From Phoronis australis (Eukaryota > Animalia > Phoronida), in assembly GCA_002633005.1 (NCBI GenBank), contig NMRA01000008.1:1259080-1323079 (forward strand): 64,000 nt of DNA. The letters run 5' to 3'. The notes below the pieces were generated by a model. It had not been told where the DNA came from. It saw only the letters and a program-made list of their open reading frames with translations, and searched no databases. The first letter of the stretch is position 1. Each line of letters begins with the position of its first letter. Positions 30,877 to 57,661 of the stretch are shown piece by piece. The position numbers and the translations under genes are program-made.

Positions 30877-30938
30877 CAACTGTTTGCAAGCCGGTATTCA
30901 ACATTTTCTGAATCACAAGCCAGAATTTAATAACCAAC

Positions 30939-30945
30939 ATGCAAG
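30939..30945 (+). CDS. Helical cytokine-like gene A, coding exon 1 (ATG CAA G)
   Basis: aacATGCAAG|gtaag. A phase-1 donor is needed to put exon 2 in frame, and the same structure occurs in gene B. Confidence 0.8.
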
Positions 30946-31369
30946 GTAAGACGCGGTTGATTATATACCTACATAATTAGCATCAAACATGATATCGACG
31001 AGACAAATTTTAATTATGTCTCATTTGGGTTCAACCTTACTAAATACCGATTTCACTGAATATTTTTGAGTAATGCAGATTAAAGGTTCTTTATAGAATA
31101 GGCAAACTTATCCTTAAAAATCGCAATACATACTAATGGAATTTATATTTGATTAGCGCGAGAAGTTTCATTCTAACCAAGTTAGTCGTGAAAACCATCT
31201 TTGGTGTTCATCTGTTCCATTAGTAAAGCCCGTTAGGAAAGGTGAAAGTTCCATAGACACAGTTTATTTCAGTTCGAATATTCTTAGCAAAAATCGGGCC
31301 GTTTCATTCATTCAGGCAATATAGATAAGCAGACTGGCATACAATTTGCCCGCGTTATACATGTGACCG

Positions 31370-31610
31370 TTCTGGGAAATCCCAGGGTTGCCATAGGAAC
31401 CGTGCTGAGTAAGAATAGTGCAGAATATTATGAACCCGGCTTTTTGGGTCTAACACATGCTTAGAATGACGAATAATGGGAAATCACCCTAAAATCGACA
31501 GAAAACGTTTTCTGATTTCGGGCTTTCGCACTATGATTTCCCATAATTTGTCCTCGAGGCCGGAATAAGGGAACCGCAAACGGATATTCCAGATAAGGCG
31601 GGAAATTTTC
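31370..31610 (+). promoter_or_regulatory. Intron-1 STAT/NF-kB motif cluster of gene A
   Basis: TTCTGGGAA (31370-31378) overlaps GGGAAATCCC (31374-31383). Further GGGAAAT half-matches occur at 31478, about 31534-31542 (-) and 31600. Confidence 0.55.
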
Positions 31611-31958
31611 AACGAAAATATAAATGAGCACAACACTGTAGTAGTAATGATTCACATTAACAGTTCAACATGCAAACGCGCGGTAGGTATAAAGATCTCT
31701 GAGTAATCTTCAGAGCGGTCTGTCACCAACTGAGACTGATCGCAGCTATAGCGAGTCAATACCAGTGGTTCAAATTTCATATTAGGGTTCAACATGGTAA
31801 TAAAGGCCTATGGTCCGAGTTTTAGTCAAAAAAAAACTCTTAACGGCGTTTTAGCCGATTTTTTGGTGTGATAGATTTAATTCCTCTCCAGTTGATTTTT
31901 CTGTTGCTTGTATTCGATTAGCCCCTGATCACGAGAAAATCGTTACTTGCATTTACAG

Positions 31959-32230
31959 GAATAAGAAATACAGTGATCACAGCCCTCCTCTCTTTTGGTC
32001 TCATGGGCATCCAGTCGGCGTCAATCGGCGGCGTCAAGACGCAGCGAGACGTCGAGTCAACACAAACGAGCCATGGAAGATGTCACTGGTACAGACCATG
32101 CGGGGGTGAGATAGAACAAGTCCAAATTAATACGACTCCGAGTGGACAAACCTTCAATCAAGCTTACAGAGACATGGCAGTAAAGGCTTTTGGACTATCT
32201 AGACAGTCGCAAGATTTAAAGATATCCTAC
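31959..32230 (+). CDS. Cytokine-like gene A exon 2 (signal peptide, pro-region, CHWYRPC, helix A)
   Basis: cag acceptor and gtgagt donor. Reads GIRNTVITALLSFGLMGIQSAS...GRCHWYRPC...YRDMAVKAFGLSRQSQDLKISY, paralogous to 53823-54097. Confidence 0.9.
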
Positions 32231-33914
32231 GTGAGTTTATTTTACAATTTAAGTCACTGACAGTTTGCGTACCGGTACGGTATATACTTTGTTGAGCGTC
32301 CGTAGTCGGATTACATTCGACTCGGTAAAATGGCTTTTCAGTCAGCCTAGCGGGGACAGGGGGGTGGTGTCCGATCAAGAGAATCAAATCGCATTCAATA
32401 CCCAAAATAAAATTTCCCGTATGTAGTGCCTCTCACTGAAAATTCTCTGCAACCGCCTACGCAGTGTTTAAAACCAAAACTGTAAAGACAACGGGCAACG
32501 CGTTTCGAAGAAATCGCAACCTGCCAGAACAACAACGTCCTACTGCATTAAATAGGTCGCATAAGTAATCGGAAAGGGCTATTGGGTGATAAGGTGATGG
32601 TTTGCGATAACTTGGCGGGTGACGCAAAATTGCAAGGCTTTTCAGACCTGTAGAAGTTCCCTTGATTTTAAAGTGTGCAAAATTTAGATTTACACGCCAT
32701 CGCAGTTGAATGAGACATTTATCAGTGCGAACTCGCAAATGTAGTAATGTGCTGTTTATGCCACCTCCATCCAGGAGAGAACGGTAAGAGTGTGTCAGGT
32801 CGTTTGTTTTCCAACTGCTCTACGAAACTTCTTAGATCTTCATAGGCATCTCATTTGAGTTTGTTTTGTATTTGTACGAATTCATATAGTGTATTCGCAC
32901 TATTGGACTGCACCTGCAAAATTATAATTGCATTAAGTTACTGGAATTATTTTTGGAGTGTGCAACTTGTGAGTTGTGTGTGAAGTTGAACCGTCCATTT
33001 GATTTGTCTCACGGGCTGTAAAGCCCCAGGCATAGTCTAGGTAGTCTGACCATAGACTGGTGGCCGCCTTGTCCTGTTGTGTTAAAACCGAAGGTAGATA
33101 ATCTCCATTATTCAACCTAAATATTTGTTTCATTTTTGGCGGAAATTAGTCACGAAATGTTTTTAAATTTACATGCTCGTACTGACAGCGGCTCCTTGGC
33201 TTACTTCGCATTTGTCAGTTGATGAAAAAGGTGACCCAGGCTCATGGAAGTGAGGAAAGCACAAAAAATTCAGTATTTCAGGCTTCATGTCCAAGTCTCA
33301 ATTTGCAGTACAATTGTCCGGTACTTCGTCTCTCATGGATCTATTATGAACAAATGGACGTCGTGCTCAACAAAACTTGTCTCAAGGAAAATTTGCTGCC
33401 GATATACTCCAAATAAAATATATATAACACATAGATAGGTGACTTGGTTTATGAAATTTCGAAAAGTGTCCATGAATTTTATCGCAGTTGTTGCCAACTT
33501 CACTGTATCCTTGATTAGTGTGAAAGTTTATTCTGCCTGTGTTGGAGCTGTTCACTGTAGTTATGCTGAGTGAAAATTAGTTTTAATTGACCAAGCGTCA
33601 TTGGAGATTCTTTTTGGTGGGGAAGATGGACAATTAGAAATGGATTATTAACATTTGTGGTACCTGTATCATAGGTCTGTGATTTGCAAAAACTGTTAGC
33701 TCAATCCTGTTGTGTCAAAATTCTCGACTAAACCAAAGGCACTCTCATTACTCATTTGACTATATGTATCAGAACTTCTATATAATGTGGTGTAAAAATG
33801 CAGTGGCTGATACGTGTGCATGTGTGAGAACTTTTGTAGTGAGAACTGCCATGGTATGACTGGGTCCTCTGCTTTTTATGATAATTGCACCGTTTATTTA
33901 ATTATTATTGACAG

Positions 33915-34028
33915 ATCAAGAGAGCAATGCATGACCCGGAGTTTGCGAGTCTGTTTGATGCATTTCACTTCAACAAATTTCCTGTCAATCAAGTCACAGA
34001 CAGCGCAGTGGAATTCGCCACAGAACAC
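33915..34028 (+). CDS. Cytokine-like gene A exon 3 (114 nt; AB loop IKRAMHDPEFASLFDAFHFNKFPVNQVTDSAVEFATEH)
   Basis: cag acceptor and gtaagt donor, phase 0/0, paralogous to 55660-55773. Confidence 0.9.
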
Positions 34029-34559
34029 GTAAGTCAGATAATCACAACAGAATATCTATAAGGATATGTGTCACTTTATCAACAAGTGTGTAGTTGCCCA
34101 AATATCTACTGTAGAACAATGGGTTTTAACTCAGTGAAAGTTTTACATTTTCTGAAAGTAGAAAGCCTTTATTTATTTTTTTGTTTACTTTAAAGCTATA
34201 GTGTCTTGTGACCATATCTTTTTGTAGTAAAATTTAGCAAAAAGAATGGTTCGTTTATAGAAAAACAACATCATCATCAATAACGTGGCAAAGTTTTGAT
34301 TGATAAAAATATTCACGATGAAATCTCAAAAATGCTGCTGATGCATGTCTTGCCGCTGATCATGATGTTGTTAACTCCATTGTTAACAATGCCCCCTGGT
34401 GCCAGATATCACATGTAAAGCTGAATTAACTCGTGTAATGTTGCACTGTCATCTCAGATAAAAAGTTACTAGTAACTTGCTTAACGTTACTTCAATCGTA
34501 TCCATACTGGTCCGCCATGGTATGTGACTCGTCCTTAGTTTTGCACTGCTTTATTTCAG

Positions 34560-34749
34560 ACCGACACGTTTCTTGTTCAAACCTATCAAGAGATGGCAAC
34601 CATTTCCGTCTATCTTAACAGAGTGCGACTGGAGAACAAGCACTGGTCAGTAGGTGGCAACAGTATGTTCTACACCACCATCGACCAGATTTCTATTCAA
34701 TATTGTGATTTGATGTGCAGCCTCAACATCCATATCAAGGCAACTAAAG
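34560..34749 (+). CDS. Cytokine-like gene A exon 4 (helices B and C: TDTFLVQTYQEMATISVYLNRVRLE...IQYCDLMCSLNIHIKATK)
   Basis: cag acceptor and gtaaat donor, 190 nt, ending in phase 1. Confidence 0.9.
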
Positions 34750-35289: not shown

Positions 35290-35468
35290 GTCTCGTAATA
35301 CCGGAAACGGTCACCGAAGATGTTATAGATCCTCATTACGATAACTTGGGCTTCAGCGAGACCTACAAATATGTGCGCGACTACATAATAATTCGCGATT
35401 ACAGTCACTACCTTAATTACTTGGGTGAAATGATGCAGGAGTTGGAGAATCTGCCTTCAAACCACTAA
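35290..35468 (+). CDS. Cytokine-like gene A exon 5 (CD loop and helix D: ...YKYVRDYIIIRDYSHYLNYLGEMMQELENLPSNH*)
   Basis: tag acceptor in frame. Total CDS is 762 nt (253 aa). Confidence 0.9.
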
Positions 35469-36363
35469 AGTGATAAAGCTGTTCCACGTTTCCCCGCACC
35501 CTATGTGGGGTGCCCAATTTGTACAGTTTATGATCCATCTGATATTCAGATTGGTTCGTAAGTTGTACAAAAATGTATGTGCTATGCACGTGTTATAATT
35601 TTAAATAAATGATTGCTTAACATGTGATTTGATGACATCAAAACAGTTGTATGATTATGTTCCAGTTGTCTGAGACAATTACCAACCACTGGGTGCATAA
35701 TTGTATTAATTTTTGATATCATGTGTTTGATAATTATTTTGATCTGTTAAAGGCTAGTATATCTATTTAGATATATTTCTCATGAGTGACTTCAGTAAAG
35801 ATTTGTTATCATTAGCTTTTTTATTTTAAATTGTTTGTGAACTGGAATACAAATTAATAAGGAAATAGAAAAAGAACTACTGTAAAATGCAGTTATGATA
35901 TGTAGCTTCAAAGCTTTCTAAACAAACTTACTTGTAATAATGTAATGATGTAATAATGTAATAAATAAACTAACAATAATGAAGTGATGGAAAAATTTTA
36001 ATGAAAGGAATTTTAATAAATGTTTGTTAATACTTATTACATTCAGTGTTGTAAATCAACTGAGTGTGAAGTTGTGTAACCGTAACTCAGAGTGTTATAA
36101 TCAAAAAATGTACTGTAGTTTTGTAATCATGAAGTACTTAATCCACTATCTTGTTTTGTTTTGTTTTGTTGTGTGTTGTTTTTGAAGTGTTATTACAACT
36201 TGTTCATGATTTATGTGATGGGTTAGTACTGCAATATACTGCCAATAATTTATGCTAATTTATGCCTGTTATGTGAGACTGCTACTTAACCTGAGTTTTT
36301 GCTCCGTTTAAACTACTGCTTTTTCATTTGTGAACTGCTGATATTTCCTGATATTTATATCTC

Positions 36364-36387
36364 TTTATTTATTTATTTATTTATTTT
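36364..36387 (+). promoter_or_regulatory. Class-II-type AU-rich element in the gene A 3' UTR
   Basis: Overlapping ATTTA pentamers (TTATTTATTTATTTATTTATT), with a matching tract in gene B. Confidence 0.65.
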
Positions 36388-36597
36388 TTTATTTGGATAA
36401 GTTGTTTAAGTAGCTGAATACCGCATTTTACTTAAAATTTCTAAGTTTCCCACAATATGTTTTTGGGTTTTCAATATGGTTAGTTAGGGTTCCAACTGTC
36501 TATATCATGGAATATTAACTTAACATTCCTATGCAGAGTGTAAATATATAACTTGCCTGTACTGAAAGCATTCCTTTGTAATTCGTGGTTGTGGTGT

Positions 36598-36603
36598 AAT
36601 AAA
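36598..36603 (+). promoter_or_regulatory. Probable polyA signal of gene A
   Basis: AATAAA lies in a block (aataaa..tataaa.ctgacttt.attt) conserved with gene B 58694-58724. Earlier AATAAA hexamers also exist. Confidence 0.55.
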
Positions 36604-37941
36604 TTATTAATATAAAACTGACTTTTATTTCATTAAATTCTATACATAACGAATTATTAACGTCAGCGGCAAAAGTGAAAAACACGAAGAAAAATGAAAT
36701 CAAACACTTTCACAATGGTCTGGTATTGTGGTTCTTATTGATTGATCTTTGCATCTGTTCACTTGAGCCGTCCGGGTCTCGGTGATTCATTTCAACCAAT
36801 GGCGTTTTGGGGATGAAGTTGCTGTAACAACATTAGGCCTACTGTTGAGTGTAGCGTTGTACAATCTGTGTTCTTAGAAATTTTCAAAATAGTTTGATCT
36901 GAAGTGATAGATCTCCTTTCGCATTTTAGAGAAGAAGAATGAAGATTTTTCAGTTTTCTCTTGAAATATTGGTAACGGCAAACAATTCGCTTGCGATTCT
37001 ATCGTCATTCATCTGTTCCATAGGCGAGCAATATTTTCATGTTGTTTACTTTTTATCGTCGGCCGTCCGGTATCGCCATAGAAAACTGCGTAATGTGGTG
37101 AAGAGCTACAGCTTTGTGTGTAGGCCTCACCCGCAGGCCCGTACCCAGCATTGCGCGGGAGTGGTTCGAATTTCTAAAACGGTGGACCTTAGACATTTTG
37201 CAAACGTCGGCACTAGAGTTCTCGGTTAGGCCCTTGACGCAGCTTAATTAGGGGGTTCCATGCTTTGCGTTCCTGAGATAAGACGAAATTTATAATACTA
37301 GAAATCAAGATTGCCGTAACGGTTGCTCGCAAAGAACTAAACGCAAATTCAGATGTAACGTGGCTCAGAGTGTATCGCGTGCCGTAGCGGTGGAAGTGTA
37401 GCGCGTAAATTTACGAGCGAGACTTCGCTCGTATTTTACGACCGAAATCGTTATATCCAATGAAAAATTGGTTTGTCGGTTACGTGAGCTCTGAAGCAGT
37501 TGTGCGCTCGTAATATGTTTCGCTCGTACTTTTACGTTCGTAATTTTACGCTCGTATTTTTCGCATGTTATTAAGTATTCAGAAGGTAAAATCTCAGGTG
37601 CAAAGTCCAAAAGGTTGAAAATATCAAAGACTGACTGAAATGTTTTTACATCAGTTGCTCCCCTAACCATCCCAGACACTTGAAAGTGCTCCGTTTTAGT
37701 ACATAATGATGTATCAAATGTCTGACAATGCTTCGATATTATTTTGTTAAAATAACTATGCTTTATCGTTTATTTCGACAACATCTCATTCTCTTACTCT
37801 TAACATTGCGTGCAAATGACATATGACGTTGCAAAAAACATTGGTTCCAAACGGTTTGAGGGGTTTATTTAATAGAATTTCTAAATGTTGCTGGTAAATC
37901 ACTCACTCTTTATTCAAGACATTTGAATAAGAAACCATATG

Positions 37942-38229
37942 CCGTGGCAGATCTAGGATACCATATGGGCGGGGGGGGCAAAATGTTGCCTCGGGGAATT
38001 GGGCAACTCGTGGTTGTATGTGTACAGGCGTCTCGAAAGTTGCGGGGGCCAGGAGTATGAACCTTCTGTTCGTAAAATCTGTCGACTAAAATAAAAACGG
38101 GAACGCGATCCCGACGCGAACTGGGGTCTGAGCCCCCCACCCCCCTCCTCCGCTACCGGGCCTTGTTATATTTCCTCACGCTTCTTGCTGCTGCTGTTGC
38201 TGTTTCATTTTGCTTGCGGCAGCCAAGGG
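37942..38229 (-). mobile_element. Third copy of the GGCGGAT MITE family, running into the gap
   Basis: Reverse complement of the 29297-29623 element (gtggcagatctaggataccata...tgtttcattttgcttgcggcagccaaggg). Confidence 0.85.
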
Positions 38230-38808
38230 NNNNNNNNNNNNNNNNNNNNNNNNNNNNNNNNNNNNNNNNNNNNNNNNNNNNNNNNNNNNNNNNNNNNNNN
38301 NNNNNNNNNNNNNNNNNNNNNNNNNNNNNNNNNNNNNNNNNNNNNNNNNNNNNNNNNNNNNNNNNNNNNNNNNNNNNNNNNNNNNNNNNNNNNNNNNNNN
38401 NNNNNNNNNNNNNNNNNNNNNNNNNNNNNNNNNNNNNNNNNNNNNNNNNNNNNNNNNNNNNNNNNNNNNNNNNNNNNNNNNNNNNNNNNNNNNNNNNNNN
38501 NNNNNNNNNNNNNNNNNNNNNNNNNNNNNNNNNNNNNNNNNNNNNNNNNNNNNNNNNNNNNNNNNNNNNNNNNNNNNNNNNNNNNNNNNNNNNNNNNNNN
38601 NNNNNNNNNNNNNNNNNNNNNNNNNNNNNNNNNNNNNNNNNNNNNNNNNNNNNNNNNNNNNNNNNNNNNNNNNNNNNNNNNNNNNNNNNNNNNNNNNNNN
38701 NNNNNNNNNNNNNNNNNNNNNNNNNNNNNNNNNNNNNNNNNNNNNNNNNNNNNNNNNNNNNNNNNNNNNNNNNNNNNNNNNNNNNNNNNNNNNNNNNNNN
38801 NNNNNNNN
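38230..38808. other. Assembly gap (579 N)
   Basis: Run of N. Confidence 1.
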
Positions 38809-39232
38809 AATAACTATTCAACTAGTGCACATTCTTTAAATGGTTACTAAATGGACACAAATACAAAACTTTATTTATGTCAGTTCCGACTAATTAACAG
38901 ACAATCAGAGTAATGAACTGTCGGAATTCTGGTTTCAGAATTCGAAGTAAGGAACTTTCGAAGGTAATGAACCTTCGGAGACGTGAATCTTGGAAACATA
39001 CTCATTTTTATTGTTCGTATAAAATCTGCGAGGCTGTGCACCGTCGACACTGATTGACAAGAGAAGACTTTCGTCATTGACCAAAGTTCCTATTAGGCCT
39101 AGGGTTACTTTTCCCTTATAGTGTGAACATGCCTGTAGGAGATTTCTCAATGCAAGAAGTCACGGTAATTAAATGTCTGGTTTTTGAGCAACGACGGAGG
39201 ACTGACAATATTGAACTTACCATCGACGATTA

Positions 39233-39389
39233 CTGGTGTGCGTTCAGTAGTCGTTAGGACCTACGCTAGGACCTGGCTAAAACCTAGTCAATGTCACGTG
39301 TTCTCATTTAAAATGCACGGCAATATCTCACGTAATCTCGCTAAGTCTTGCTTTTTAGCGAGGTCCTAGCGTTACTGAACGGGAGGCTG
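39233..39389 (-). mobile_element. MITE, inverted copy of 24212-24367
   Basis: Direct comparison of the two sequences. Confidence 0.8.
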
Positions 39390-42331
39390 AATTTAAAAGA
39401 ACGGAAACACATACACGCATGCGTTTCAATCCACCGATCCACAATCAAAATGGACACTAGATGAACAAAATATTTGACGATCACTTTCAATTCGAAATTT
39501 GAAAATGTCTGCACTTTATCGAGCTATGCTATCAAGTGTACCAAAATAGCAGACGACCAACATATTTTCTGCTGTTTGTTTTTTGATCGATTTTAAGGCA
39601 AAGGTCATTCAAGATCAAGGTCACTTGATTATTTCCCAATCGCTGTTACTTTCCTCCAAAAAAGGATTCTGAGTTTGGAAATTAGACGCTGGGCTCAGGC
39701 CTGACTGTCAGTTTTACGCTCGTCCTTGGCCGCAATCTTGCACTAGCGGGGTATGAGAAGAGTTAGTGGTATTGCGTCATAATTAGACCGGCAGTAAAAG
39801 GCCGCCTTGGCATAGATGAACGAGATACCATCATCTGACCATAACAGCACTTACAGTCCACCTCAGTATATACAGAAATGTACGTTTGCCGTTGTCTAGA
39901 CTCTGGATGTGACCCCTGGGGACCTTACAAAGGGGACAAAAACGAGCTGATTACATATTCGAGGTACCGGCCAAAACTGATTTAAAACGGACAATAGTAC
40001 CGCACTGAACATCAAAATACACATGACAGAAAAACTGCACTGATACTGGAATGGGTCCGGCAGAAACCAAGAATGGACCCCAAAATGAGCGAGCTCATAC
40101 ATTCGAGGAACCACAAAAATCAATTCCATGTGATTCAATACATGCCACTGATCACTAAATGCCCCATGACAGACAAAATACACTCTGGGTTGTGCACTTC
40201 ACTGAGAAATCCTCAAAAATGTCAACAACGGTAAGCCATTGGAAATTTGAGCTATATATTGGATATACGAGATACTGAGCTAAATCTGATTTAAAACGAA
40301 CAATGGTACCTCACTGGACACCGAATGACCCATGCAGTCTGGAAAGCGTCCGCCAGAAAACCAAAAAGACCCCCCCCCCCCAAATGAGCTAGCTCATACA
40401 TTCGAGATACCACAAAACAATTCCATGTGATTCAATACATGTCACTGGTCACCAAATGACCTATGACAGATAAATTACCCTCTGGGATGCCAGTGCCTGC
40501 TAGAAATCCCCAAAATTCTCAACTACGGTATGCCATCGAACGTTTGAGCTACATTAGACAATTGAGGTACCCTCTAAAATTGACTTAAAACCAACAAACG
40601 TTCCGCATTGAACACCGAATGCCACGGCAAACCAAATGTCCTCTGGAAAAGGTTCACCAGAAGCTCAAAGGAGCTAGCTCATATATTCGAGGTACCACAA
40701 TAAACAATTCCATGTAATTCCAATAGATGTTACTGGTTACTAAAGGGCCTGTGAAAGACAAAACCCAATCTGGTTTGTGTGCGCCAGCCCCAGAAATCTC
40801 AACCACGTAATTCTGTTGCAAACGTGTGATACATTTGATGATAAAGGTTCCTGTTAAATTTTGGTGAAGTTCCATAGAATCAAGAACTTCGATAAGGAAG
40901 GTATTGTGATCACGTGCTTCGTTTGCAGTTATGGCGAATTCTTGTATTTCCGTAATACTTTCGCGTCCACCGATCTCTCGCCTTGCTTAAAATTAATAAC
41001 AGCGTTAAACTGAGTTCCAAGAAGTTGATGGCGGAAAGTAATTTGGAAAATACCTGATAACACTAAAACTTTGGGATACCAGGAACTGTCACTTTCAAAC
41101 AGCAACCCAAAAACTTAAAACAAGATAAAAGACACATTAAAATCACTGCATGGACGAGAACATTAGGTATACACATGTTTACACGTCAATAATAGTTTCT
41201 TGTTAGATTTTATGTTTCACTATCAGATTCGTCACTGCTTCTCCAACTTGATTCGGGCTCGCTTGTTTCGTCATCAGTCCATTTCATTTCCTTCTTGATC
41301 GGCTTGTTTTCTTGAAAAGACCCGCACCTTCAAAAAGGACGACAGGAACGGCAGGTCCACAAAACCATTGGAGAGTATAATATCTATAATGTAGCTTCCA
41401 TCAGTAGTTGAAAGTATTCCAAACGTTTCCTAAGACCATCGCAACATAATGGGCTCATTTAGCTTGTTCAGTAGTGTGTTTTGCAAGTAGAAAACAATGC
41501 ACTGTCTATCGTCTTGACGTTGGACATCGGGTTTTCTGGAAATAAATAGTGAGAAAACTTAATTGATGAGGAACCAACTGTCTAACAGTGGAAAAAACCT
41601 AGAGCCAGAACATCACTTACTGTCCTTTAAGCATCATCTGAGACTGGACCTTTTGGTTTAATACGACGGAAGCGTTATTTGAAATTATTTTCATTGCATT
41701 TATCAACTATATTTTACCAATTATGATTATATTTCCGGTCATGTCGATTAATTTCAGATATCTCGCTTCATTATCTTCGACGCCCTCCTTCAATCCAAAC
41801 AGTATGCTTATGAAATTCTTCTAACTTTCTTTTGCCTGGACAAACGTTTGAGTTTACTATGAGGATGTGTTCTACTGTTGTTTTCGTGCTGGGTTCCTAA
41901 AAACGACGTCACCACTTTCCATCGACGAGTATTTTACAACAAGCTAGGTTGTTAGAGAACTCAACTAGGATTTAGGAATCGCTTAGTTTATAGCAGTCTG
42001 AAAATGGCTGGAGTCGGCGACCCATATCACAGACACAGTGTCGTGAGTGACGGAGACATATTGTTCACAGCAGCGGTGAAGAGGAATTTTTCACGAACAG
42101 TCAGTGGGTAGATATAAGCTTGAGCGCGAGTATAATGAGACAGAAAATGCACAGAGACTTGCGGGATGAGGCAGAGACTGATGACACACCTGGTGGGACG
42201 TCTTGCTGCACGGTGTGCACTGTTATAATACAGGCCTATGCTGTTCCCACTGGATGGTGACCTGAGAACGTTGCGTAGACGGGTAACGCTGCTTTCTTCA
42301 CACGAACGAGACAAAGGCGGCAGAGTGTTAC

Positions 42332-42418
42332 CTTTCGGAAAGCTATGTAATGGCTTACCCAAAGTGCGCGTGAGACAATAATAGGTATACACCCCGATAC
42401 GCAGCAGCCGTGCGGCAT
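42332..42418 (-). pseudogene. THAP zinc-finger N-terminal exon relic (MPHGCCVSGC..YCLTRTLGKPLHSFPK, one frameshift)
   Basis: MPxxCCVxGC...LHxFPK is the THAP start motif, followed by the donor-like AAAG|GTAACA. A possible degraded VSVHF lies downstream. Confidence 0.6.
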
Positions 42419-42464
42419 GCTGACTGACCGTAAACAAAGGCAAACGACGACCAGACTTATCACA

Positions 42465-42557
42465 ACCACAGGCACCTTTAATCAGCCCTCGACGACATAC
42501 CGTATAATAAAGAGAGTATCGGTATATCGTCGAGGGCTGATTAAAAGTGCCTGTGGT
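42465..42557. repeat. About 35-bp-arm hairpin just upstream of the THAP ATG
   Basis: accacaggcacctttaatcagccctcgacga / tcgtcgagggctgattaaaagtgcctgtggt. Confidence 0.85.
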
Positions 42558-43507
42558 AAGACAATTACTGTCTTGACAGCTCACACTGTCAGACGATATG
42601 GAAACAAACTGGCAGGAAATTCTTAACACCCAAAACGTCACTTCCGGAGTAAGACACGATTAATTAATAAAATCACGTTATTAACAGACCTGTATACCAC
42701 CAAAACTGCACTGGAGTACTTTGGACTCCAGATTTGCAGATTTTCTTAGTGAATTTGCAGATTATCATTGCGTACAGAGCAAAATTTCGAAAATTCGAAT
42801 AGAAAGGTTTCTTACTGAACTAAATAGTTATGTTGATACATGCCGCAATGGCAATAAATACCGTGAATCGTGATAAGTTGGATACACAACAGACAGGCCT
42901 TGCTTCAAAAGTTGTGCTCGTTTCTAAATAAAAAACATATCTGCTAAAAGGTGTTCATGAATCTACAATAGATAATGTTTTGCACTAGACGTCATGTTCT
43001 TAACCATTCACAAAAGTTTAGAATAATTATTCATTCCAAGTGTCTGTGAACACGTACCGCCGCACTACCTGTGAAAAATCTAGAGTGTTACCGTCGGCTC
43101 AACGTGCCACGAAGTCAGTGCAGTCACCATGCGCGCACAAGAAAACAACACGCTCCACAAGTTGCATTATAAATTCGAATGTCCCTTCCATGAGACACTG
43201 TCATTCATTGAAATAACGAAGTAAAAACAGATGTTCCCTTCCTTCAGAAGCTACTTTCTTCACAGCTCGGAGTTGGCGGACACTCATACTTTGCCATTTT
43301 ATCAACAGAACCCAATTAGGCGGAAATAGCCGAAATTACGGAAGGAAATTTCAGTGGGCCTAAATGAAAAGTTTAGGCCCTAAAAACATGTAATGTTTGT
43401 TATTCTGTAGTATTTACCTATAACTACAATAATCTTAGTTCCCGTGAAATAAAGTTTTGAAAAATGAAAAGTCCACCTTGTAAAAGATCCTAAGCCAGTG
43501 CTTCGTG

Positions 43508-44103
43508 CTCGCTGGTTCCCTGCCTGCTTAGCCCAGCCAGCACGCAGGTATCACGTAGCGGCACGTGCTTTAGCATTGGTCGATGTAACCACGGCAGTCA
43601 TTGGTTAGCTTTACAACACCGTGAAAAATGGCGGAGTGTGAACGATTTTTAGCCTTGTCATGCAAGTGAGTGGCGTCGCAGCAACTATTTCGTTTCTGTA
43701 GCGATGTTCAATAGCCGCGTGGTTGAAGCATATACATGTACAATTAACACATATCTGGCCAATTTAACCGGTGTGTTATTCATACTGTATGAATACAGGA
43801 CAGTATCGTAAACAAAAGTCATCGACAGTAGAAAGATGCATTCCGAAAAGGCGCAATCACAATTTCTAGGCTTCACATTTCCTGAACATAAATTTTAAGC
43901 ACCGATTTGTCTGTACAACAGACTGCATTTTACACTTCAGTCTATCAGTCATGCCCGTTTTTTTGCGTAAAGCGCTGTCTGTTGAGAATTCTACTAGCCA
44001 ATCAGAAACGCCGGTGTAAAAAAATTTCCCGAGGAAAATTAAGTGATACCTGCGTGCTGGTGCGGCTACCGCCCCACCTAGTGGCACGCAGGGAACCAGC
44101 GAG
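43508..44103. mobile_element. Non-autonomous DNA transposon, Mutator-like (9-10 bp TSD)
   Basis: TIR CTCGCTGGTTCCCTGC...CCAGCACGCAGGTATCAC at both ends, flanked by GTGCTTCGTG and GTACTTCGTG. Confidence 0.75.
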
Positions 44104-47100: not shown

Positions 47101-48470
47101 GTACGAAACGTGAGCTCAACTCTCCGTCGACGAGGGTGCTCAACTATCCTCCACATTCACATGAGTTAATTGAACCACTCGACAAATATTTCGTAACCAT
47201 AAATGCAGAGCGAGATTTAACTCCAGTTGACCGTAACAATCATCTTCAAGATCCGTTGGCTTCAAGTTATACTCACAGCCCGACGACTATCGGCAATGAA
47301 CGAACAGGTGTCTCAATCCACGCTGGTCTCCCCTCAGTGTACGGTTGTTCACTGGTCCTGGCTGATCTAGTGTAGCGGTGCCGGGATTTCAAAGAAAGTC
47401 CAACTCTGGAACCTCGTATCTTCATTTGGAAAAAAGTCTCATGACGACACTGCAGGATAACGTCACCCGTGGTCATCTCAATCGGGTCGTGGACTTGCCG
47501 TCCTTCATCCTGGCATCGTAGCACTCGATCAGTTATGGAGGCCAAACAGCCTTTCGTCTTGTTTAGGGAAACCAGTGAATTTGGGTAACTTTCAATTGGT
47601 TTCAGTTGTGAGTGAAGCATGCGATCTCTAGTGATAATATCGAAGATTGAACATATAACCTAATTAAAAATGGGTCAAAGGTCGACAGCAGTCATCCCTT
47701 CATGACGTGGAGGAGTATAGTTGAGTGCAGTGTAAAAAGGAGACTTGAGCTCACACTTGCTCCAGTTGTGGTGCAATGATGGAGACAATTAAATGCTCTA
47801 TGGCTGGTGTTTTTATTTTCCGGTACTTTCAAATGTAACCCTATCTGCAACAACTTTAAATAACAGAGCCTTCTGTCAGACATTATGTGACAAAACAAAG
47901 TTCCATTGGATACATTAGGCAACTCGCACGCCAACGCCATTTGCACACGAGTGGACGAGAATGCGCGCATCTTTCACCCACAGTGTCGACACTGGTTTCA
48001 TCATGGTCCGATACATGCGCCATCTGTGGTTTTAATTACTTTGATATTTATTGCGGTGGCTGTTAATCCGGTACAGTGGGAACATTGGCGATTTACTACG
48101 GTTGCTTATCTTAAGTATCTGAGGAAATGTTACCTATTTCTTTATTCCGGTGTGGCCTGTGGGAAACCATCTAAAGGCTTAATTGTTATGATTTAAATGA
48201 ACTGGTCGCTATTCATGGTTTCGCCCAAATGTGTGCTACCCTCTAACACAGTACCAACTATACTGAAAAATGGCATTCTTGAAACATGATGAACAACACA
48301 CGGAATTCCGCGTGTAGGCATCAATGCCATGCCTAGGTTGGAAGTATGTCGATCACATCGCCACTACATCCAAAGGCCTTTAAAGGAGAATGCCACAGAA
48401 AAAAACTATCAATTTAGATCGAGTAGTTCCTCTCGATAACAGCAATTTCAGTTGTTTTACCTGAAACCTG

Positions 48471-48872
48471 AGCCCGGTCTCCAATCTTTTTACTCGAAAT
48501 GGAACTCGAAATTAGGTTTGGCATTTTCTACTCTACTTTTGGGCGAACTCAAGATAAGTCTCTAATATTCTATGCTCGAGTACACAATAACTTACGTAGA
48601 TAATTTATTGCCCTTTGTTCACAGTTTGTAAACCCAATATTAAAGCAATAAGTTCGGCTTTGAACTCGAAATTTCGAGTTTTTACTAGAGTTTGTACCAC
48701 GAATATAAGGGTCTTCAAGGGCAAACTTGACCTAGAAACCTCTATGCATAAACTATAATGTATTCGAGCACAGTCTGATAACCAATTATCTTAAGTTCGC
48801 ACAAAAGGAGCAGAGAAATTGCCAAGAATAGTTTCGAGTTCGTTTCAAGTACAAAGATTAGAGACCGGGCCC
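48471..48872. mobile_element. MITE with about 90-bp TIRs (GCCCGGTCTC.AATCTTT.TACT.GAAA.GAACTCGAAA)
   Basis: Clear inverted ends, with a second partial copy at 24390-24635. Confidence 0.8.
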
Positions 48873-49850
48873 TGACTGCAGACGGACGTGTTGAAATTAA
48901 CCAATGACGTAATCGGTTCGAACGCTGTCTGTTCAGCCGAACACGCTTAGGCTTACTGGTGTCAACTTATCGCTTGAATTCATCGTTTTACACCAATAAA
49001 TCATCAAAATTGGATGTAAAACCTTTACAAATACACCAAGTTCTTGAACAAACGTGTTGTTTTATTTCACTGTTACGGATTTATTTGAACGTACTGTAGC
49101 CTACAGAGTTCTGTAGGCCAATTTACCATGGTCGATCGCGGGAGTTTGGGTCTGTTTGGTGATAAATTCGAATCATTCTTTCGTGAAATACAGACAGGAG
49201 AACACAGCTTGGTGTTGTAATTTTATTCGTATGATTTTTTTCAGTTCTAAACACACAAAACACTTGTTATCCCAGCCAGTGGCTCGGAACTCGATCAGGC
49301 CCGTCGCGGCCGCCGGCGGGATTGCACATCACGAACATAAACCAGCTTAAGTTGGAAACTAAACCTCTAGTCACGAAAAGAAATAATGTGCACGTAATTA
49401 GTTTGGTGAATTAGTCACGAAACTGAAAATCTACATACTCGTCCGGGGCAGCGGAGTCACTGAGGTTCCTCTTCCACAGAACCTTCAAGGCAAAAGTTGT
49501 ACAATAACAATGATTTGAATAATGTATTTGTATATCTAAGTAAAGATTCCCCAAACATGGGACCATAGCATATAAGATCGAGTTATTGTTTCACAACAGC
49601 TTCTGTCAGCAAATACTGAATTAATTAGCATGCGCTCACACGGCCTCGGTGCCCGGTGAATTATCTTTATTGCATCTAAAGACGGTAACGCAGTGTTTCA
49701 CTCATTGCTGGCTTCTCAAAACATTTGCCCTCACGAATACTCCAAAGGCATTACAAATTGTATCTAACGAGACAGACTTTGTTTCAGTTTCATATAGGCG
49801 TAGATTAGGGTGAGAATAATTCATTTCAACACAGAATAATAAACGTCAAC

Positions 49851-50018
49851 ATGGCGACTCGCAATCACGACTCAGGCGAGAGCTCATCCGACGCAGACTT
49901 TACAGGTGGATCGTTAGGTTTTACAGGCTATCAGTTCGAACCGCAATACACTGATCAAGAAATACTAAAGTGGCGCCATTAAAATGCACAGGCAACGGAA
50001 CGTATGGATAGTTCTTTG
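49851..50018 (+). pseudogene. Relic first exon of a P2X7-C-terminus-like (KolX-type) transposon accessory gene
   Basis: MATRNHDSGESSSDADF...GYQFEPQYTDQEI..*..ERMDSS followed by gtaagc. An acidic/Ser N-terminus plus the YxFEP motif is typical of this family. There is an in-frame stop. Confidence 0.5.
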
Positions 50019-51029
50019 GTAAGCCGGCATTCGTTAGAGAAATCACTGTCGACGAAATGTCGGCCACATACACGGAGATGTTTCACGGCCTCATACTTGC
50101 TATTAACTGCGTACTTTTCATTCTTCACTTCCGCGAGTCACTTCCTAAGCAATTCGGGTTCTCGAGGAAGTCGAAAAAACGATATACCCGCTTTCTTCGC
50201 AGCTCTATAGTTCTGGCAAGCGGGAACTATGCACCGCAACATAGACTCTATTCACGCGGCGGCCATTAAAATCCAAAGCGAGGCTCACTGCGATAAACAA
50301 AGCGGAAGTAGACATTGCGTGAGTTAAATAGCCGGTCTTTCGAGTCCAACCTGGATACTGAATTTTAATGATGTGTCGACAATTAACCACAGAGACGCAG
50401 AAAATTACATTAGAGAACAAGTTAAGACGCCAAAGAGTTGTCTGACGAAAAGGTTAAATTTTTTCGGAAAACTAGGTTCGAAACATGAAAAGTAAATATG
50501 ACCAAATTGCAGCAATCGTGGTGTTAAGGATTAGGTATTATGGTGAATGCAGGGTTACGTTTTTTCTTGTAAATTGTTGATCAAAATACTTTCTACGCGG
50601 ACCAGGTCATCTGCTCGTATTGTTGACGAGTTGCAGACATATTCGACAGTGGTGGCTGTCATGTGCAATTAGTCACATCTGGTTTAATTTGTTGATCAAG
50701 AATATTAACATCAAGCATAGGATGATCCTATGCACTCACTGGGACTAACAGTTGATTTGTCATTGATCTGAAAGAATAGTTGATGTTATTAAATACATTT
50801 TTTATTAAAATAATAAACCAGGCTCGTAATTGAAAATAAAAATGATTTGACCATCAATTCTGCTTTCATGGTTGTAATAATTCTTACGTCTATTTCATGT
50901 GTTAGATATCAATCTGGACCAAGTTGAATTTTAAATTAAAACACCTAATTCGTTCGTCCAAAACATAACCTCGTTTTAGAACTCAATTTCAGTTAACTGG
51001 ACAATGCAATCATAGTTATCATGTTTCTT

Positions 51030-51366
51030 CAGGAACCTCGTTCATCCGAGGGTAAAGGTGCCAGTGCGGCCTACTGAGAGGCGATTTTTTCGCCGAGTGA
51101 GAGCGGGAACAATCTACCTCCCGATCACCATCAATAGCACCCCCGCCCTGTTGCAAGCTCTCATAGGCTCTGTCTCAATTTAAAGTAGCCTTTTGTGCTC
51201 TTAAAAATTGTCACCTGTGTGGTTACAAATGACGTGAACTCAGAGAGATTTTTCACTAGGGGAATTTTTATACCTCGTGGGGGGGAATTTCGCGTGATAT
51301 TTCAATATTTTTGAGAGGGGAATAGGACCGATATTGGGCCCCAAATTTTAGGGAATGAGGGCCCTG
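51030..51366. mobile_element. MITE related to 2157-2393
   Basis: caggaacctcgtt ... aatgagggccctg ends and shared internal blocks. Confidence 0.5.
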
Positions 51367-51409
51367 TTCTTTTTGGAAAGAAGAATTATAATGTTCGTTC
51401 AACCCGTAG

Positions 51410-51715
51410 CAGGGGCGGATCCAGGATTTTGAGTTGGGGGGGGGCAGGGCACAGGAATAAGCAGCATTTCGGCAGATGCGCGCGCCCAGCCTAAAATCTG
51501 GAGATGCAGGGGTCTTGAATTCTTGGGTTTGCGGACGTGTTGACTAAAAAAAAAAACGGTAAACCGAGGGTTCATTCAGCGCCTATGCGTTGTTTATTCA
51601 CCCCCCAAAGACCCCCTGGTTGCGCTCGTGTGCTAGTCAGCAATTCGCACCCGAACTCAAAAATGGGATCTGATACAATTTTAGGGGGGGGGGGGGCACC
51701 CCCCTCCCCCAAATC
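51410..51715. mobile_element. CAGGGGCGGATCCAGGA-type MITE with an eroded right end and possible TSD CGTAG
   Basis: cgtag|caggggcggatccagga ... cccccaaatc|cgtag. Confidence 0.6.
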
Positions 51716-52950
51716 CGTAGTCATGAAAATACAGCCTGGCATTCTCCGTTCGTTACTACATGATGCTTGACAACTAGATGCGACAACATATGATCTACTC
51801 ATTTCGAAAACATTTATTTTACACGGACATATTTTGCTTCGTCACGGCGTATGGCAACGACCCAACGCTTCCGAATCTCACGTCTTTAGAGATTGTAAAG
51901 CAAACAGTTGCGTGTCCGAATTTTTTCAAGCCGTTCGCGGAACAATACGGACGGAAACACAGACTCCTATGCCGATAAGCTAACAGAGCTATCGTAGCGA
52001 GCCTCGTTTTGGAACGCGCCTCCTATCGGCGTGAATAGGGTCTATAGCGGCATTCACTCTGCAGACGTCGCTGCGTCGTTTCTCGCCTTCCTTACAGGTT
52101 AACACGACACCTCTCGGCAAAAAGGTAAGGTCGACCGTGTGAGAGGCGATGTGGACATAGACCGATTAAGACGGTAAAAAGACTAATTAAATCGGGTAGC
52201 ATTCTCTCTTAAGCATTGTACCTGCTTGGGCTTAAGCCAATGGACCGCGGATTGATTTTGTTTACTTCGATCACCGTATAGGGAAACAGTAACCAGAGAG
52301 GGGTTTCTCAGATTTCAACCAATGGGAATCACTGAATTCTATGACGTCGATTTCATTACTTTAACCAATGAGAACCCATTTTAAACAACATTCGAGAGTA
52401 GAGAGTGTAAAATGCGTATTGGATGAGATAAATTACTGTCGTGATAACGCGTCTGGTTATCGTACGAGTTTCAAAATAAAAAACGACCAATAAGTAAAGG
52501 CAATTGACCAACCTCACGGTTTTTTAAAATTGAAAAGTAAATAATAGCAGTCTTCGAATTTTTAAAAGCGGTGCATTATTAGAGAAATTAGGAATAGTTT
52601 TTCTTCATGAGCCATGCGCATTAATTAACTTTTACATGCGAAACTTCCGCTTTTAACCAAGTTTCGGTAAGTGGGAGAGGATAATTCCGTTAGTTAATCT
52701 GCAAGCGGTCATCGATATGGTCGCTAGAGATAAACATCGAAACGAAATAAATTTCAAGTCAGTGATATAGATTTTGCAACTTCCCTAAAAAGTCAAGTAT
52801 CGAATGAAAATCGATTCCAAGATTGTTAAAGCTATTCTATAGGTCCCCTAAAAAGCAAATGAGGGAAAGCCTCCTTGGACGCATGCATATGATCGCTAGC
52901 TAAAATCAGTAAATTGTATACAAGAAAAAAAAACCCCGGTTCAACTACTC

Positions 52951-52958
52951 TATATAAA
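52951..52958 (+). promoter_or_regulatory. TATA box of cytokine-like gene B
   Basis: TATATAAA 57 nt before the ATG, preceded by ccccggt as in the gene A promoter. Several CCAAT motifs lie at 52237-52491. Confidence 0.65.
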
Positions 52959-53007
52959 GAATTTGAACATGAATTCAAACCAAGTTAGCATTATATTTTA
53001 CTCAAGC

Positions 53008-53014
53008 ATGGAAG
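53008..53014 (+). CDS. Helical cytokine-like gene B, coding exon 1 (ATG GAA G)
   Basis: agcATGGAAG|gtaaga. The start of intron 1 aligns with that of gene A. Confidence 0.8.
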
Positions 53015-53822
53015 GTAAGAAGCGGTTGTGCGTAACGATAGATAAATAAGAAACATGGTCTCGATGCGGAGACAACTCTGAAGGCTTCATTTGGGTTCTG
53101 CCTTACGAAGTATTAAATTTGGTTACATCTTTCCAAGTAATACAGGTTCTAGGCTCTTTTGAATAGAAAAAGTTTTTATCTATGGAACCACGATTTGTTC
53201 TAAGTAAATCATAAAGTGTATTACAGGCGGAAAAAGTTATACCTTACCAAGTTATTCGTGAAACCTATTTTTGGTCTTCGGCTGTTCCTTTAGAGAACTC
53301 TATTAAAAACAGTAAAACTCCCGTTGCATTTTTTAATATGTTTAAGAATATGAAAATAGGTTTCATTTTTTCACTCATAATCGATAGGAACGACTCAACG
53401 GTAACGTCGCACGGTAATGGACGAACTTTGTATCGAACGAACGGGGCATAGTCACGAGCAACAATATTAACTGTCAGTTTCTTGAAAGACCAAAAGAACC
53501 TCTTCCCATCCCAGTAAGGAACAAGTTGAGCAAAGAATTGTAGCAGTTTTGTGACCTAAACCAAGAGTTAGTTTTTTGGCAGAACGCGGGTTTATCGTCA
53601 CCTAAATCTGGCGTACATAGCAAAGCATCATGCTAAACATTTATTGCTAGGTATGTAAGTGCATATGTTACATGTTTAGTTACAATTTGTTAATTACTTG
53701 AGAATATAATGCATTGCAAAGAAATGGTTTAGTTTATTTGCGAATACGTATGTCCAATTTCACGTTTTTTTTTCTTTCCACTAACTTTGAATCTCTCAGA
53801 AATTTCACGCTTGAATTTTTAG

Positions 53823-54097
53823 GAATCAAAAATTCATCGATCGTCCTGATCCTCCTTGGCCCGTTCATCATGGACATCTTGTCGGCGCCAGTCGACAGCA
53901 ACGAGACGCAGCAAGTCGTTGAGTCAACGCAGACGATAAACCGCAGATGTCATTGGTACAGACCATGCATTAGTGAGATAGAACAGGTACAAGCTAACAC
54001 GACACCAAGCGGACAACTCCTCAATGAAGCTTACCGAAACATGTCATTGAAGGCTTTTGGACTATCTATACAGTCACAAGATTTAAAGACATCCTAC
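53823..54097 (+). CDS. Cytokine-like gene B exon 2 (GIKNSSIVLILLGPFIMDILSAPVD...RRCHWYRPC...QSQDLKTSY)
   Basis: tag acceptor and gtaaga donor, with a signal-peptide-like N-terminus, paralogous to gene A. Confidence 0.9.
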
Positions 54098-55659
54098 GTA
54101 AGATTTTGAAACATTTATTTGGATGAGTTTTAATCCAATCAAATTGTAGTGTTGGCTACTTCAGTATCGTTGTGAAAATTTATTAATTTCACCTGCTAAA
54201 ACGCGTTTTTCAAACCAATGGGTAAGTCTTATTTCATAATTATCCCAGATGTATCAGCGTTTGGGATTTATTATCCTTAGCGGACGTTGATCGTTCCGCA
54301 GAAATCTTGGTGAGCATAATTAGTACAGTTATCAAGTAAAATGTTACGTCACACGTGAGAAGACGCACCATAACATCACCACGCGGCAGTAAAGGGTGTT
54401 TATTGGAGGCTGGTATTTGATGCAGGGAACCGTTCAAGTTCTGCTGTTGCCAAAACAGGAGTGCTGAATTGATTTTTGGATAACCTAATACACTGGTTAG
54501 AGAACCATACCGAGGGACAATTTATAGAGAAACCGGCGGATATAGCGTGTGGTGAAAAGAGTGTACGCACAACTTTGAAGCAAGTCTGACGGCCCGGGCA
54601 TGGTGATGAGTTTTGGTTTAGTCCCGAGGGGGCGCAACCTTTGACTTCCTGAATTTTTCAAAGACGAAGAGTTTGACCTGACTGTTACCGATGGACGGTA
54701 TAGGCCTAGAGCCGGTACAGTGTGTTCCTTCGCAGCGCTCACCTGTGGTGAAAATGGCGTTACAAATGTCAATTCTGCGCAAGAACTTGGAATCCTGCTT
54801 AATCTCAAGATCGCGTATGCGTGAACTTGGATTACACGAGGAAACTTGACAACTTCACTCAAATAATCACGTTCACGTTGATAAAAATTTGCACCGCACT
54901 AACTCAAATTACATATTAACAAATTAACGTAAATTTTAACCAATCTTTTTCTAACAATTCACAGTATACCTCCGATTCTGTGACACAAGTTACGCTAATG
55001 GAGGAAATGGATGATCATGAGGCCAACAATTACAAAACTCTTTACAATGACCAAAAAGTTCACCTGATTGCCCAAATGAATATTCAGTTCCAAGCTCACG
55101 CATTCACGATCTTGAGATTAAGCAGGATTCTAAGTTCTGTATTAGAATTTCGTTTCCGTTTTATACAACTTTATTTTTTTCGCAAAAACCACATAAGTTT
55201 CTTTTTTGATAGCTTCTCATGCAAAAATGAAACATTTAAAAAACAATTCTTAAAACATTTTGGGGAACTGTGTGTAAAGCATAGTAGCTGAAAGATTCAT
55301 AAGAATTTACCTGCCGTTTCTGAAATAAGATATTCCGGAGTTGGCCAAAATTGGAAATTTTTATGGGCCCTATGTGACTTTAACATTTTGACGAATCTGA
55401 CTGGTGCTGGCGGAAACGGGCAACTGTGGCCAAAAACGTGTCTCGAATACGGCATCAATAATGGACCTCCTACCGGTGGTGTCTGCAACTATTCCGCGCC
55501 ACTCTCAATTCTAGCCCGTTGTGTCTAAATCTTTGGGAACTGTCGATTGGCTGTTACATGCACCTTTGTGAGAACTTTCGCAGTGTGAACTGCCTTGGTG
55601 TGACAGGGTCCTTTGGCTTTTCATGATTATTGCACTGTTTATTCAATTATTATTGACAG

Positions 55660-55773
55660 ATCAAGACAGCAATTCATGACCCGGAGTTTGCGAGTCTGTT
55701 TGATGCATTTCACTTCAACAAATTTCCTGTCAATCAAGTCACAGACAGCGTAGTGGAATTCGCCATAGAACAC
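55660..55773 (+). CDS. Cytokine-like gene B exon 3 (114 nt)
   Basis: cag acceptor and gtaaga donor. Reads IKTAIHDPEFASLFDAFHFNKFPVNQVTDSVVEFAIEH. Confidence 0.9.
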
Positions 55774-56286
55774 GTAAGACAGATAACGACATTAGAATAT
55801 CTATAATGATATGTGTCACGTGATCAACAAGTGCGTATTTGCCCAAATATCTACAGAACAATGGATTTTAACTCAGTGAAAGATTTATATTTTCTGCAAC
55901 TAGAAAGCCTTTATTTTCTACTTTAAAGCTATAGTGTCATGTGACCATATTTTTATGTAGTATTTAGTAAAATTTAGCAAAAAGAATGGTTCGTTTATAG
56001 AAAAACAACACCATGGCAAAATTTTGATCGATAAAAATATTCAAGATGAAATCTAAAAAATGCTGTTGATGCATGTCTTGCCGCTGATCATGATGTTGTT
56101 AACACCATTGATAGCAATGCCCCTGGTATCAGTTATGACATGTCAAGCGGAGTAAACTCATGCAATGTTGCACTGTCTTCGCCGACAAAAATCATTAGTA
56201 CTTTGATAAACGTTAATTCAATCGTTTTAATAATTATCCGCCGTGGTACCTGACTTGTCCTTAAGTTTTGCACCGTTTTATTTCAG

Positions 56287-56476
56287 ACCGACACGTTCCT
56301 TGTTCAAACCTATCAAGAGATGGCAACCATTTCCGTCTATCTTAACAGAGTGCGACTGGAGAACAAGCACTGGTCAGTAGGTGGCAGCAGTATGTTCTAC
56401 ACTACCATCGACCAGATTTCTATTCAATATTGTGATTTGATGTGCAGCCTCAACATCCATATCAAGGCATTAAAAG
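56287..56476 (+). CDS. Cytokine-like gene B exon 4 (190 nt)
   Basis: cag acceptor and gtaaag donor, nearly identical to gene A exon 4. Confidence 0.9.
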
Positions 56477-56784
56477 GTAAAGACAAAACGCACACGCCCA
56501 CGCAGAGGCGCACGCAATCACCCGCAATCATTGGACTGTTTTTTTTCATGATGTCTTATAACGGCTAACCAAACACAAGTTTTTGGCATCACAAATTCCT
56601 TCTTTTCTCACCTCCATTCTCTCTCGACAAATCGCTCACTTCCCAACGTTTACCATGTTTTCTTCATTTGTACATGACTTTGGAGTGAGCTGAAAAGCAC
56701 TGATTGCACGATATCTGCACAATATAAGCATGTAATTCTGAAACCCGTTTGGAAACGAAATGCGCGAACATTTTTAAGTCTGGT

Positions 56785-56988
56785 CAGCACGCCACCTGTG
56801 GCCACATCACGTGAACTGAATATAAGTATGAAAAGATTTCTGCCCCAACCGGGAATCGAACACGGAACCTTCTACTCAGTGGATTAGAGCTTGACTACGG
56901 TTACAAGCGTTCGAGTCCCGCTTGAGGCAGAAGGCGTTTCAGACTTATATTCATTAGGTCACGTGATGTAGCCACAGGCGGTGTGCTG
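56785..56988. mobile_element. Palindromic element with tRNA-like T-arm/B-box in both arms, in intron 4 of gene B
   Basis: cagcacgccacctgtggccacatcacgtga...ctgccccaaccgggaatcgaac / gttcgagtcccgcttgaggcag...tcacgtgatgtagccacaggcggtgtgctg. Confidence 0.75.
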
Positions 56989-57485
56989 CACAAAGTAAAC
57001 TGTTACTCTGAGCTTGTCAATTGATTGCTGACAATGTATGAAGAATTGGTTTCGATGTAATTTTACTGTAAATGTGCACACTTAAGGCCATGCGTCTAAT
57101 TCCAAAATGCGTTTCTTTCACTCACGTTCTCCATGCAATAAGGCACACGAGCCTACTCTTTACTGTCTTGGGCACAGTCATCTACACACGTTACTAAATT
57201 TGTGTTTTCCCAGGGTTTTCGTCCATTCTTAGAATTCACCTATATCGCCCAGGAGAGTTACAATTGAAGTAATTGTTAACGTAATAGTATCTAACTTCCA
57301 CAGGAAAGGATCTTAAATCTGCATGCTTGATTTTGTGGGTGTATGACGCTCATGGTTCTTATACTTTTCTATGGACAAAGTATAAGTTTCAGATGATCAC
57401 GATTTCTGCCACTGTGTAGTTTAATGTTCACTAAGAGGTATAATCCTGTAACTTTTTTCCACTCATCATCGTTATCTTTTGGTAG

Positions 57486-57661
57486 GTCTCACAATACCAG
57501 AAGTGGTCAAAGAAGACGTGATAGACCGTCGTTACGCTAACATGGGCAACGAGTCCTACAAATACGTGCGTGACTTCATAATAATTCGGGATTACAGTCA
57601 CTACCTAAATTACTTGAGTAAACTAATGCTGGTGTTGGAAAATCTGTCTACGAACAACTAA
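57486..57661 (+). CDS. Cytokine-like gene B exon 5 (...YKYVRDFIIIRDYSHYLNYLSKLMLVLENLSTNN*)
   Basis: tag acceptor in frame. Total CDS is 762 nt (253 aa). Confidence 0.9.

Follow-up and report, generated by a model that had tools for sequence, protein, structure and literature searches.

The 64,000-nt stretch of the Phoronis australis genome discussed here (contig NMRA01000008.1 of assembly GCA_002633005.1, forward strand positions 1,259,080 to 1,323,079, hereafter the window) carries two tandem genes, A and B, for which the best reading is that they encode secreted long-chain four-helix cytokines. Positions are those of the whole window, and all of the parts given below are on the plus strand. 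A first-pass annotation had proposed two intact genes of five exons and 253 amino acids (aa) each, and its coordinates proved to be exact: when spliced accordingly, A and B each give a 762-nt frame for 253 aa that is open to the end. All eight introns have GT..AG ends, and the intron phases are 1,0,0,1 in both genes, with coding exon lengths of 7/272/114/190/179 nt in A and 7/275/114/190/176 nt in B. Both gene models are real genes.

The first coding exon of A (30939..30945) is of only 7 nt, with the ATG and then the first, phase-1 intron within the signal peptide. Exon 2 (31959..32230) encodes the signal peptide, a variable spacer, the pair Cys44-x5-Cys50 and predicted helix A; exon 3 (33915..34028, 114 nt) encodes the predicted long AB loop; exon 4 (34560..34749) encodes predicted helix B (residues 133-159), a 6-residue link and predicted helix C (166-193) with Cys180 and Cys184; and the coding part of exon 5 (35290..35468) encodes the predicted CD loop and an amphipathic helix D with Tyr220 at its start. 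In B the 7-nt first exon is at 53008..53014, exon 2 with signal peptide, Cys45-x5-Cys51 and predicted helix A at 53823..54097, the 114-nt exon 3 at 55660..55773, exon 4 with predicted helices B and C and Cys181 and Cys185 at 56287..56476, and the coding part of exon 5, for the predicted CD loop and helix D, at 57486..57661. There is an N-terminal hydrophobic peak at residues 7-26 and no second peak along the 253 aa, and small residues at -3 and -1 around residues 22-24 mark the predicted cleavage region; with a single peak and no transmembrane segment the proteins are predicted to be secreted, as the first-pass annotation had it. No third copy was found by tblastn within the window. An assembly gap of 579 bases (38230-38808) lies between A and B and could hide a further copy or exon.

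The two proteins are identical at 193 of 254 aligned columns. Similarity at the DNA level starts at the proposed ATG (30938-31109 of A and 53007-53174 of B, 66% over 176 columns reaching into intron 1), and this gives separate support to the 7-nt first exon, the part of the models that is hardest to trust. Other shared blocks are in intron 1, in the 3' untranslated region (UTR), at an AU-rich ATTTA cluster (36364..36395 in A, 58187..58218 in B) and at a polyadenylation signal about 1.1 kb after the stop codon, where a conserved AATAAA block (36571..36630, matching 58667-58724 of B) is the likely 3' end of A. ATTTA occurs 9 times per 1 kb in each 3' UTR, where 2.7 are expected at the rate of the window, an expectation that is understated for UTRs of 68-71% AT. 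The ratio of nonsynonymous to synonymous divergence (dN/dS) is 0.47 overall, with 0.61 for the signal peptide and spacer, 0.30 for the mature part of exon 2, 0.31 for exon 4 and 0.22 for helix D, values which indicate that A and B are under purifying selection. Most differences between A and B fall in four parts of the protein: the arm at the N terminus, helix A, the CD loop and the final part of helix D. N-glycosylation sequons are more numerous in B.

Divergence is very uneven along the pair. Exons 2 and 5 differ at 24 of 61 and 11 of 36 synonymous sites respectively, but exons 3 and 4 at 0 of 22 and 2.7 of 38, and intron 3 is identical at 444 of 505 positions whereas the remaining introns scarcely align. 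The segment 33804..34774 of A matches 55548-56501 of B at 87% over 980 columns, introns included, and is a likely gene-conversion tract in which exons 3 and 4 and intron 3 were homogenised. The likely history, judged from this pattern, is an older duplication with later conversion across exons 3-4.

With regard to transcription, three raw RNA runs labelled as from the species (X5, X6 and X7, 18-19% of each run used) gave 11, 22 and 68 reads on A respectively, nearly all oriented as RNA from the plus strand would be. All three runs cover exon 5 and the 3' UTR, depth on exon 3 reaches about 7, and the junction of exons 3 and 4 (34028-34560) is crossed by 8 reads in X7, 1 in X6 and none in X5. 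This junction of the proposed models therefore has transcript support, whereas junctions 1-2, 2-3 and 4-5 of A have no reads in the portions of the runs used, and B has none of its own. The sparse reads on A, in samples of unstated treatment, would fit an inducible gene. Three X7 reads jump 251 bases in the 3' UTR of A (35773-36025) with non-canonical ends, probably reflecting a deletion allele.

In the case of the fold, the four helices proposed by the first-pass annotation correspond to residues 70-95, 134-156, 168-190 and 220-243 of A. When exon 4 was modelled by itself with AlphaFold2, two helices of 27-28 residues resulted at 133-159 and 166-193 (exon residues 2-28 and 35-62), joined by 6 residues, at a predicted local distance difference test score (pLDDT) of 80.9 and a predicted template modelling score (pTM) of 0.61, with 2 of 5 models confident. 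Such lengths are those of long-chain cytokine helices. Among the four, the hydrophobic moment is highest in helix D, at the 97-99th percentile of shuffles in A. The labels for helices B and C are thus supported by a fragment model and that for D by its hydrophobic moment, while helix A is weakly supported. A feature search of the ESM Atlas with exon 5 (recognition 2792, 30 matches, six rows shown) gave class I long-chain clusters in 4 of the 6 rows shown, and the family matches include CNTF (rank 8, 0.80), a cardiotrophin-2-like protein (rank 9, 0.80) and IL-11 (rank 13, 0.75); rank 3 has no family.

Each protein has four cysteines, all conserved (44, 50, 180 and 184 in A). Cys44 and Cys50 are six apart ahead of helix A, and Cys180 and Cys184 are one turn apart in the C-terminal half of predicted helix C, where a bond between these two is unlikely. 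By analogy with a known cytokine, LIF, Cys44-Cys184 and Cys50-Cys180 disulfides may hold the arm at the N terminus against the end of helix C. This pairing requires that helix A begins next to where helix C ends and would therefore agree with an up-up-down-down topology.

The direct evidence covers gene anatomy, purifying selection, the conserved cysteines and AU-rich blocks, and a low level of transcripts from the plus strand over the 3' half of A. Beyond this, the proposal that A and B are secreted long-chain four-helix cytokines has leads from the exon 4 model, the first intron, the exon 5 Atlas search and the cysteines, but the profile searches with single exons gave no significant match. 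We think it likely that A and B are long-chain class I four-helix cytokines signalling via a gp130/Domeless-type receptor to JAK-STAT and inducible by injury or infection, and the class I fold taken by itself is somewhat more probable. Injury or microbes would induce the two genes, with expression otherwise being low and short-lived, and copy A would be under the control of CRE, NF-kB and STAT. The predicted signal peptide would be cut near residue 22-24 and mature proteins of about 230 residues secreted, with predicted helices at about 67-95 (A), 133-159 (B), 166-193 (C) and about 220-247 (D). Site 2 would be formed by helices A and C plus the tethered arm and would bind a gp130/Domeless-type receptor, the LIF-type disulfide tether enlarging this site such that the ligand would be independent of an alpha receptor, and site 3 would be the tip of helix D with Tyr220 as its aromatic residue. 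Receptor binding would then activate JAK-STAT, with feedback at the intronic STAT site, and the AU-rich cluster would give fast decay of the mRNA.

Several observations weigh against this reading, including the distribution of RNA reads given below. The sequence searches were made with single exons of 38-91 aa, which lowers their sensitivity, and they found no relatives: 0 of 8 exons had a Pfam match at E up to 10, with the Unpaired domain included and no significant match to the CNTF/IL6/IL11/LIF_OSM profiles that the first-pass annotation had pointed to; the word search gave no relative; phmmer against 1.84 billion proteins gave one match, which was false and repeat-derived; and PDB sequences and metagenomes held nothing relevant. 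The likeness of helix D to IL-6 ILRSFKEFL, which had been aligned by eye, was supported by no search. There was thus no alignment and no full-length relative fit for folding, and the evidence on the fold is from exon fragments. The exon 4 hairpin matched only generic hairpins and the exon 4 Atlas search gave no usable match, exon 2 gave a low-confidence model (pLDDT 45.5) in which only residues 67-79 are helical, and the hydrophobic moments sampled across helices A, B and C are below the 90th percentile of shuffles. In the exon 5 Atlas search rank 1 went to ArAE_1_C, an unrelated family (0.91, in 26% of members) that is common to just one of the ten best family matches, and the cytokine rows, all below 0.9, are leads on the tool's own scale. 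The intron phases of IL-6 and IL-11 are 1,0,0,0, whereas the fourth intron of A and B is of phase 1. The FxxK motif that marks LIFR binders at the start of helix D (PMC9601804) is absent from A and B, the conserved Tyr220 not being followed by a basic residue at +3. Little weight can be put on the promoter sites, as 11 patterns, by consensus only, were scanned across four regions: A has a promoter-like stretch (30712..30848) with a perfect cAMP response element (CRE) at 30712 (0.06 expected) and a TATA-like box at 30842, and in its intron 1 three gamma-activated (GAS-type) STAT sites (0.43 expected), one of them overlapped by an NF-kB site (0.08 expected) at 31370..31383, but the CRE, GAS and NF-kB sites were not found in B, which has a TATA-like box only.

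The lack of relatives in the single-exon searches, together with the generic matches of the exon 4 hairpin, favours a lineage-specific secreted helical protein of some other fold or role (matrix, gamete recognition or defence) that is cytokine-like by helix spacing alone, and tandem duplication with conversion is common in fast-evolving secreted genes. However gene plan, cysteine positions, long-short-long loops and the exon 5 Atlas neighbours all indicate one clan, and we consider such a protein unlikely. Within that clan, and with the same fold, A and B could be endocrine signals of the growth hormone (GH), prolactin or leptin type, acting on growth, reproduction or metabolism through a homodimeric receptor. 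Hormone_1 (PF00103) is the best cytokine-clan neighbour of exon 5 in the Atlas (rank 2, 0.87, 196 shared features) and is also present in three other cytokine rows. A five-exon plan with a short exon 1 is common to GH and prolactin genes as well, and near its N terminus prolactin forms a small disulfide loop; the gene plan is thus a mark of the clan and not of the subfamily. However A and B have no cysteine between 51 and 179, and so none in the AB loop, nor any after 184, which makes the core and C-terminal disulfides of GH and prolactin impossible, and the AU-rich clusters and the very low read counts of the three runs suit an inducible cytokine better. We give an endocrine role a low probability.

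A class II helical cytokine, interferon or IL-10-like, would have a parallel in oyster CgIFNLP, which has a class II-like model and is described as activating JAK-STAT reporters through its receptor (PMC8218723, PMC9756803). Interferon genes are also reported to have five exons, but with phases 0-0-0-0 (bioRxiv 10.64898/2026.05.30.728932) and not the 1,0,0,1 of A and B, and there are no interferon or IL-10 rows among the six Atlas rows shown, which leaves this reading very improbable. The RNA data bear on a different possibility, that one or both copies no longer yield full-length protein, with B silent and A read mainly from within intron 2. Depth is zero on exons 1 and 2 of A in all three runs, as against about 7 on exon 3, and X6 and X7 have same-strand reads towards the 3' end of intron 2 (32600-33914), which may come from an internal start, an enhancer RNA or unspliced precursor. 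There is an in-frame stop just upstream of exon 3, and RNA beginning in intron 2 would therefore encode no secreted protein. Reads on exons 3 and 4 of B, including 4 junction reads, bear the letters of A at each of the 5 positions listed, which leaves B with no reads specific to it in the three runs, and there are none at all on its exon 5. Against such decay stand the open frames, the canonical splice sites, the low dN/dS of helix D and mature exon 2 (0.22-0.30) and the conserved blocks at exon 1 and the 3' UTR, and the read count is small, at 11-68 per run from the fraction used; we think it hardly probable that either gene has lost its full-length product.

In the rest of the window the recognised gene is the 3' part of TCERG1 (CA150), at 492-8785 on the plus strand upstream of A, with an FF domain at E 3.6e-15. 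Its best named relatives, among the matches listed, are from molluscs and an annelid. Over the first 290 residues, in a comparison of 39 of 120 listed matches chosen by hand (27 named and 12 unnamed), identity is 71-79% for molluscs, 73% for Capitella, 60% for Dimorphilus, 61-72% for arthropods and 56-60% for deuterostomes, and in the tree of these the window sequence is outside an arthropod-plus-deuterostome clade (97/97) with no placement by phylum. By this gene the DNA is likely lophotrochozoan. No recognised gene was found in the approximately 22 kb upstream of A (9000-30900) or the 16 kb between the copies (36700-52900), with 150 of 250 frames scanned. Two 462-bp copies at 21211-22133, 99% identical with a single N between them, probably arose in assembly, where contigs were joined. 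Between A and B the segments 39806-40900 and 44299-45235 are internally repetitive, in opposite orientation and 70-77% alike, and are possibly a decayed transposon pair. Introns of B contain short high-copy repeats (56767-56974 and 54783-54831), which have numerous partial matches, on either strand, to RNA and contigs; that at 56767-56974 has inverted ends and, by eye, tRNA-like boxes, with no match in Rfam.

An invertebrate CNTF/LIF-like cytokine was reportedly described in 2009, to go by a title among the references of PMC8624719. Three surveys bear out the view of the first-pass annotation that little is known of such ligands beyond vertebrates and Drosophila, but this view has to be qualified in the light of that title, of the oyster class II-like CgIFNLP and of a tested Aedes protein that we come to below. 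A 2026 survey places IL-6-family ligands in vertebrates only, the receptor from molluscs on, and JAK and STAT in molluscs (PMC13203501), and PMC8226699 and PMC9601804 report no members of the family from invertebrates. Among the papers listed in a literature search, none describes a lophotrochozoan class I ligand. A and B would be candidates for the JAK-STAT trigger reported missing in lophotrochozoans, and a ligand that can be cloned and folded would allow direct tests of that signalling. The cysteine pattern predicts alpha-receptor-independent action as in LIF, and so bears on the first form of gp130 signalling, with the significance of all this being limited by the lack of a whole-chain model and of detected relatives.

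Turning to known systems, A and B resemble IL-11 and IL-6, with which G-CSF is grouped for comparison (Pfam IL11 PF07400, IL6 PF00489), in having five exons, a first intron that interrupts the signal peptide and an AU-rich 3' UTR, and the IL-11 cluster is among the Atlas neighbours of exon 5. Introns 2-4 are after residues 93, 131 and 194, that is at the end of helix A, just ahead of helix B and just past helix C; the introns of IL-6 are at the same structural places and the third exon of human IL-6 is also of 114 nt. The first intron is 7 bp after the start of the coding sequence, as described for IL-11 of fish and mammals (PMC3271213). In contrast the N-terminal arm of A and B is longer, and there is no support from synteny, TCERG1 being the sole recognised neighbour. 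The IL-6 signature C-x9-C-x6-G-L given in PMC3271213 is not present in A and B, which have only the cysteines at 44, 50, 180 and 184, and this rules out IL-6 proper; the cysteines suit LIF and OSM better.

The Unpaired 1-3 proteins of Drosophila and the Upd-like protein of Aedes are, like A and B, secreted protostome proteins with weak sequence conservation, although from the other superphylum, and no single exon of A or B matched Pfam Unpaired. The Aedes protein is reported to be bacteria-induced and Domeless-dependent, on the basis of tests (bioRxiv 10.1101/2025.09.21.677592); the role proposed for A and B is the same, but is predicted only.

LIF and OSM share with A and B a signal peptide and an aromatic residue that opens helix D, but their genes have three exons as against five, and A and B would lack a third disulfide and have no sequence match to them. 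In LIF an N-terminal extension is described as bound to helix C by C34-C156 and C40-C153, giving added gp130 contacts that may explain independence from an alpha receptor, while OSM has one such bond and CNTF, CLCF1, IL-27 p28 and IL-6 have none (PMC10022904); the same LIF numbering is used in PMC3865251. A and B likewise have an N-terminal cysteine pair six apart before helix A and a second pair late in helix C, with a spacing there of 4 where LIF has 3. PMC10022904 describes an aromatic residue at site 3, and Tyr220, which both copies retain, could play this part. As a defining feature of each family fails in A and B, we do not place them in IL-6, LIF or GH; they are probably long-chain class I cytokines, LIF- or Unpaired-like in action, outside all three. 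A more specific suggestion, tentative and in our view rather unlikely to hold in full, is that they are gp130-type ligands with the gene plan of IL-11 and the double-disulfide arm of LIF, and that the last common bilaterian ancestor had an alpha-receptor-independent LIF-like cytokine which gave rise both to fly Unpaired and to the IL-6 family of vertebrates.

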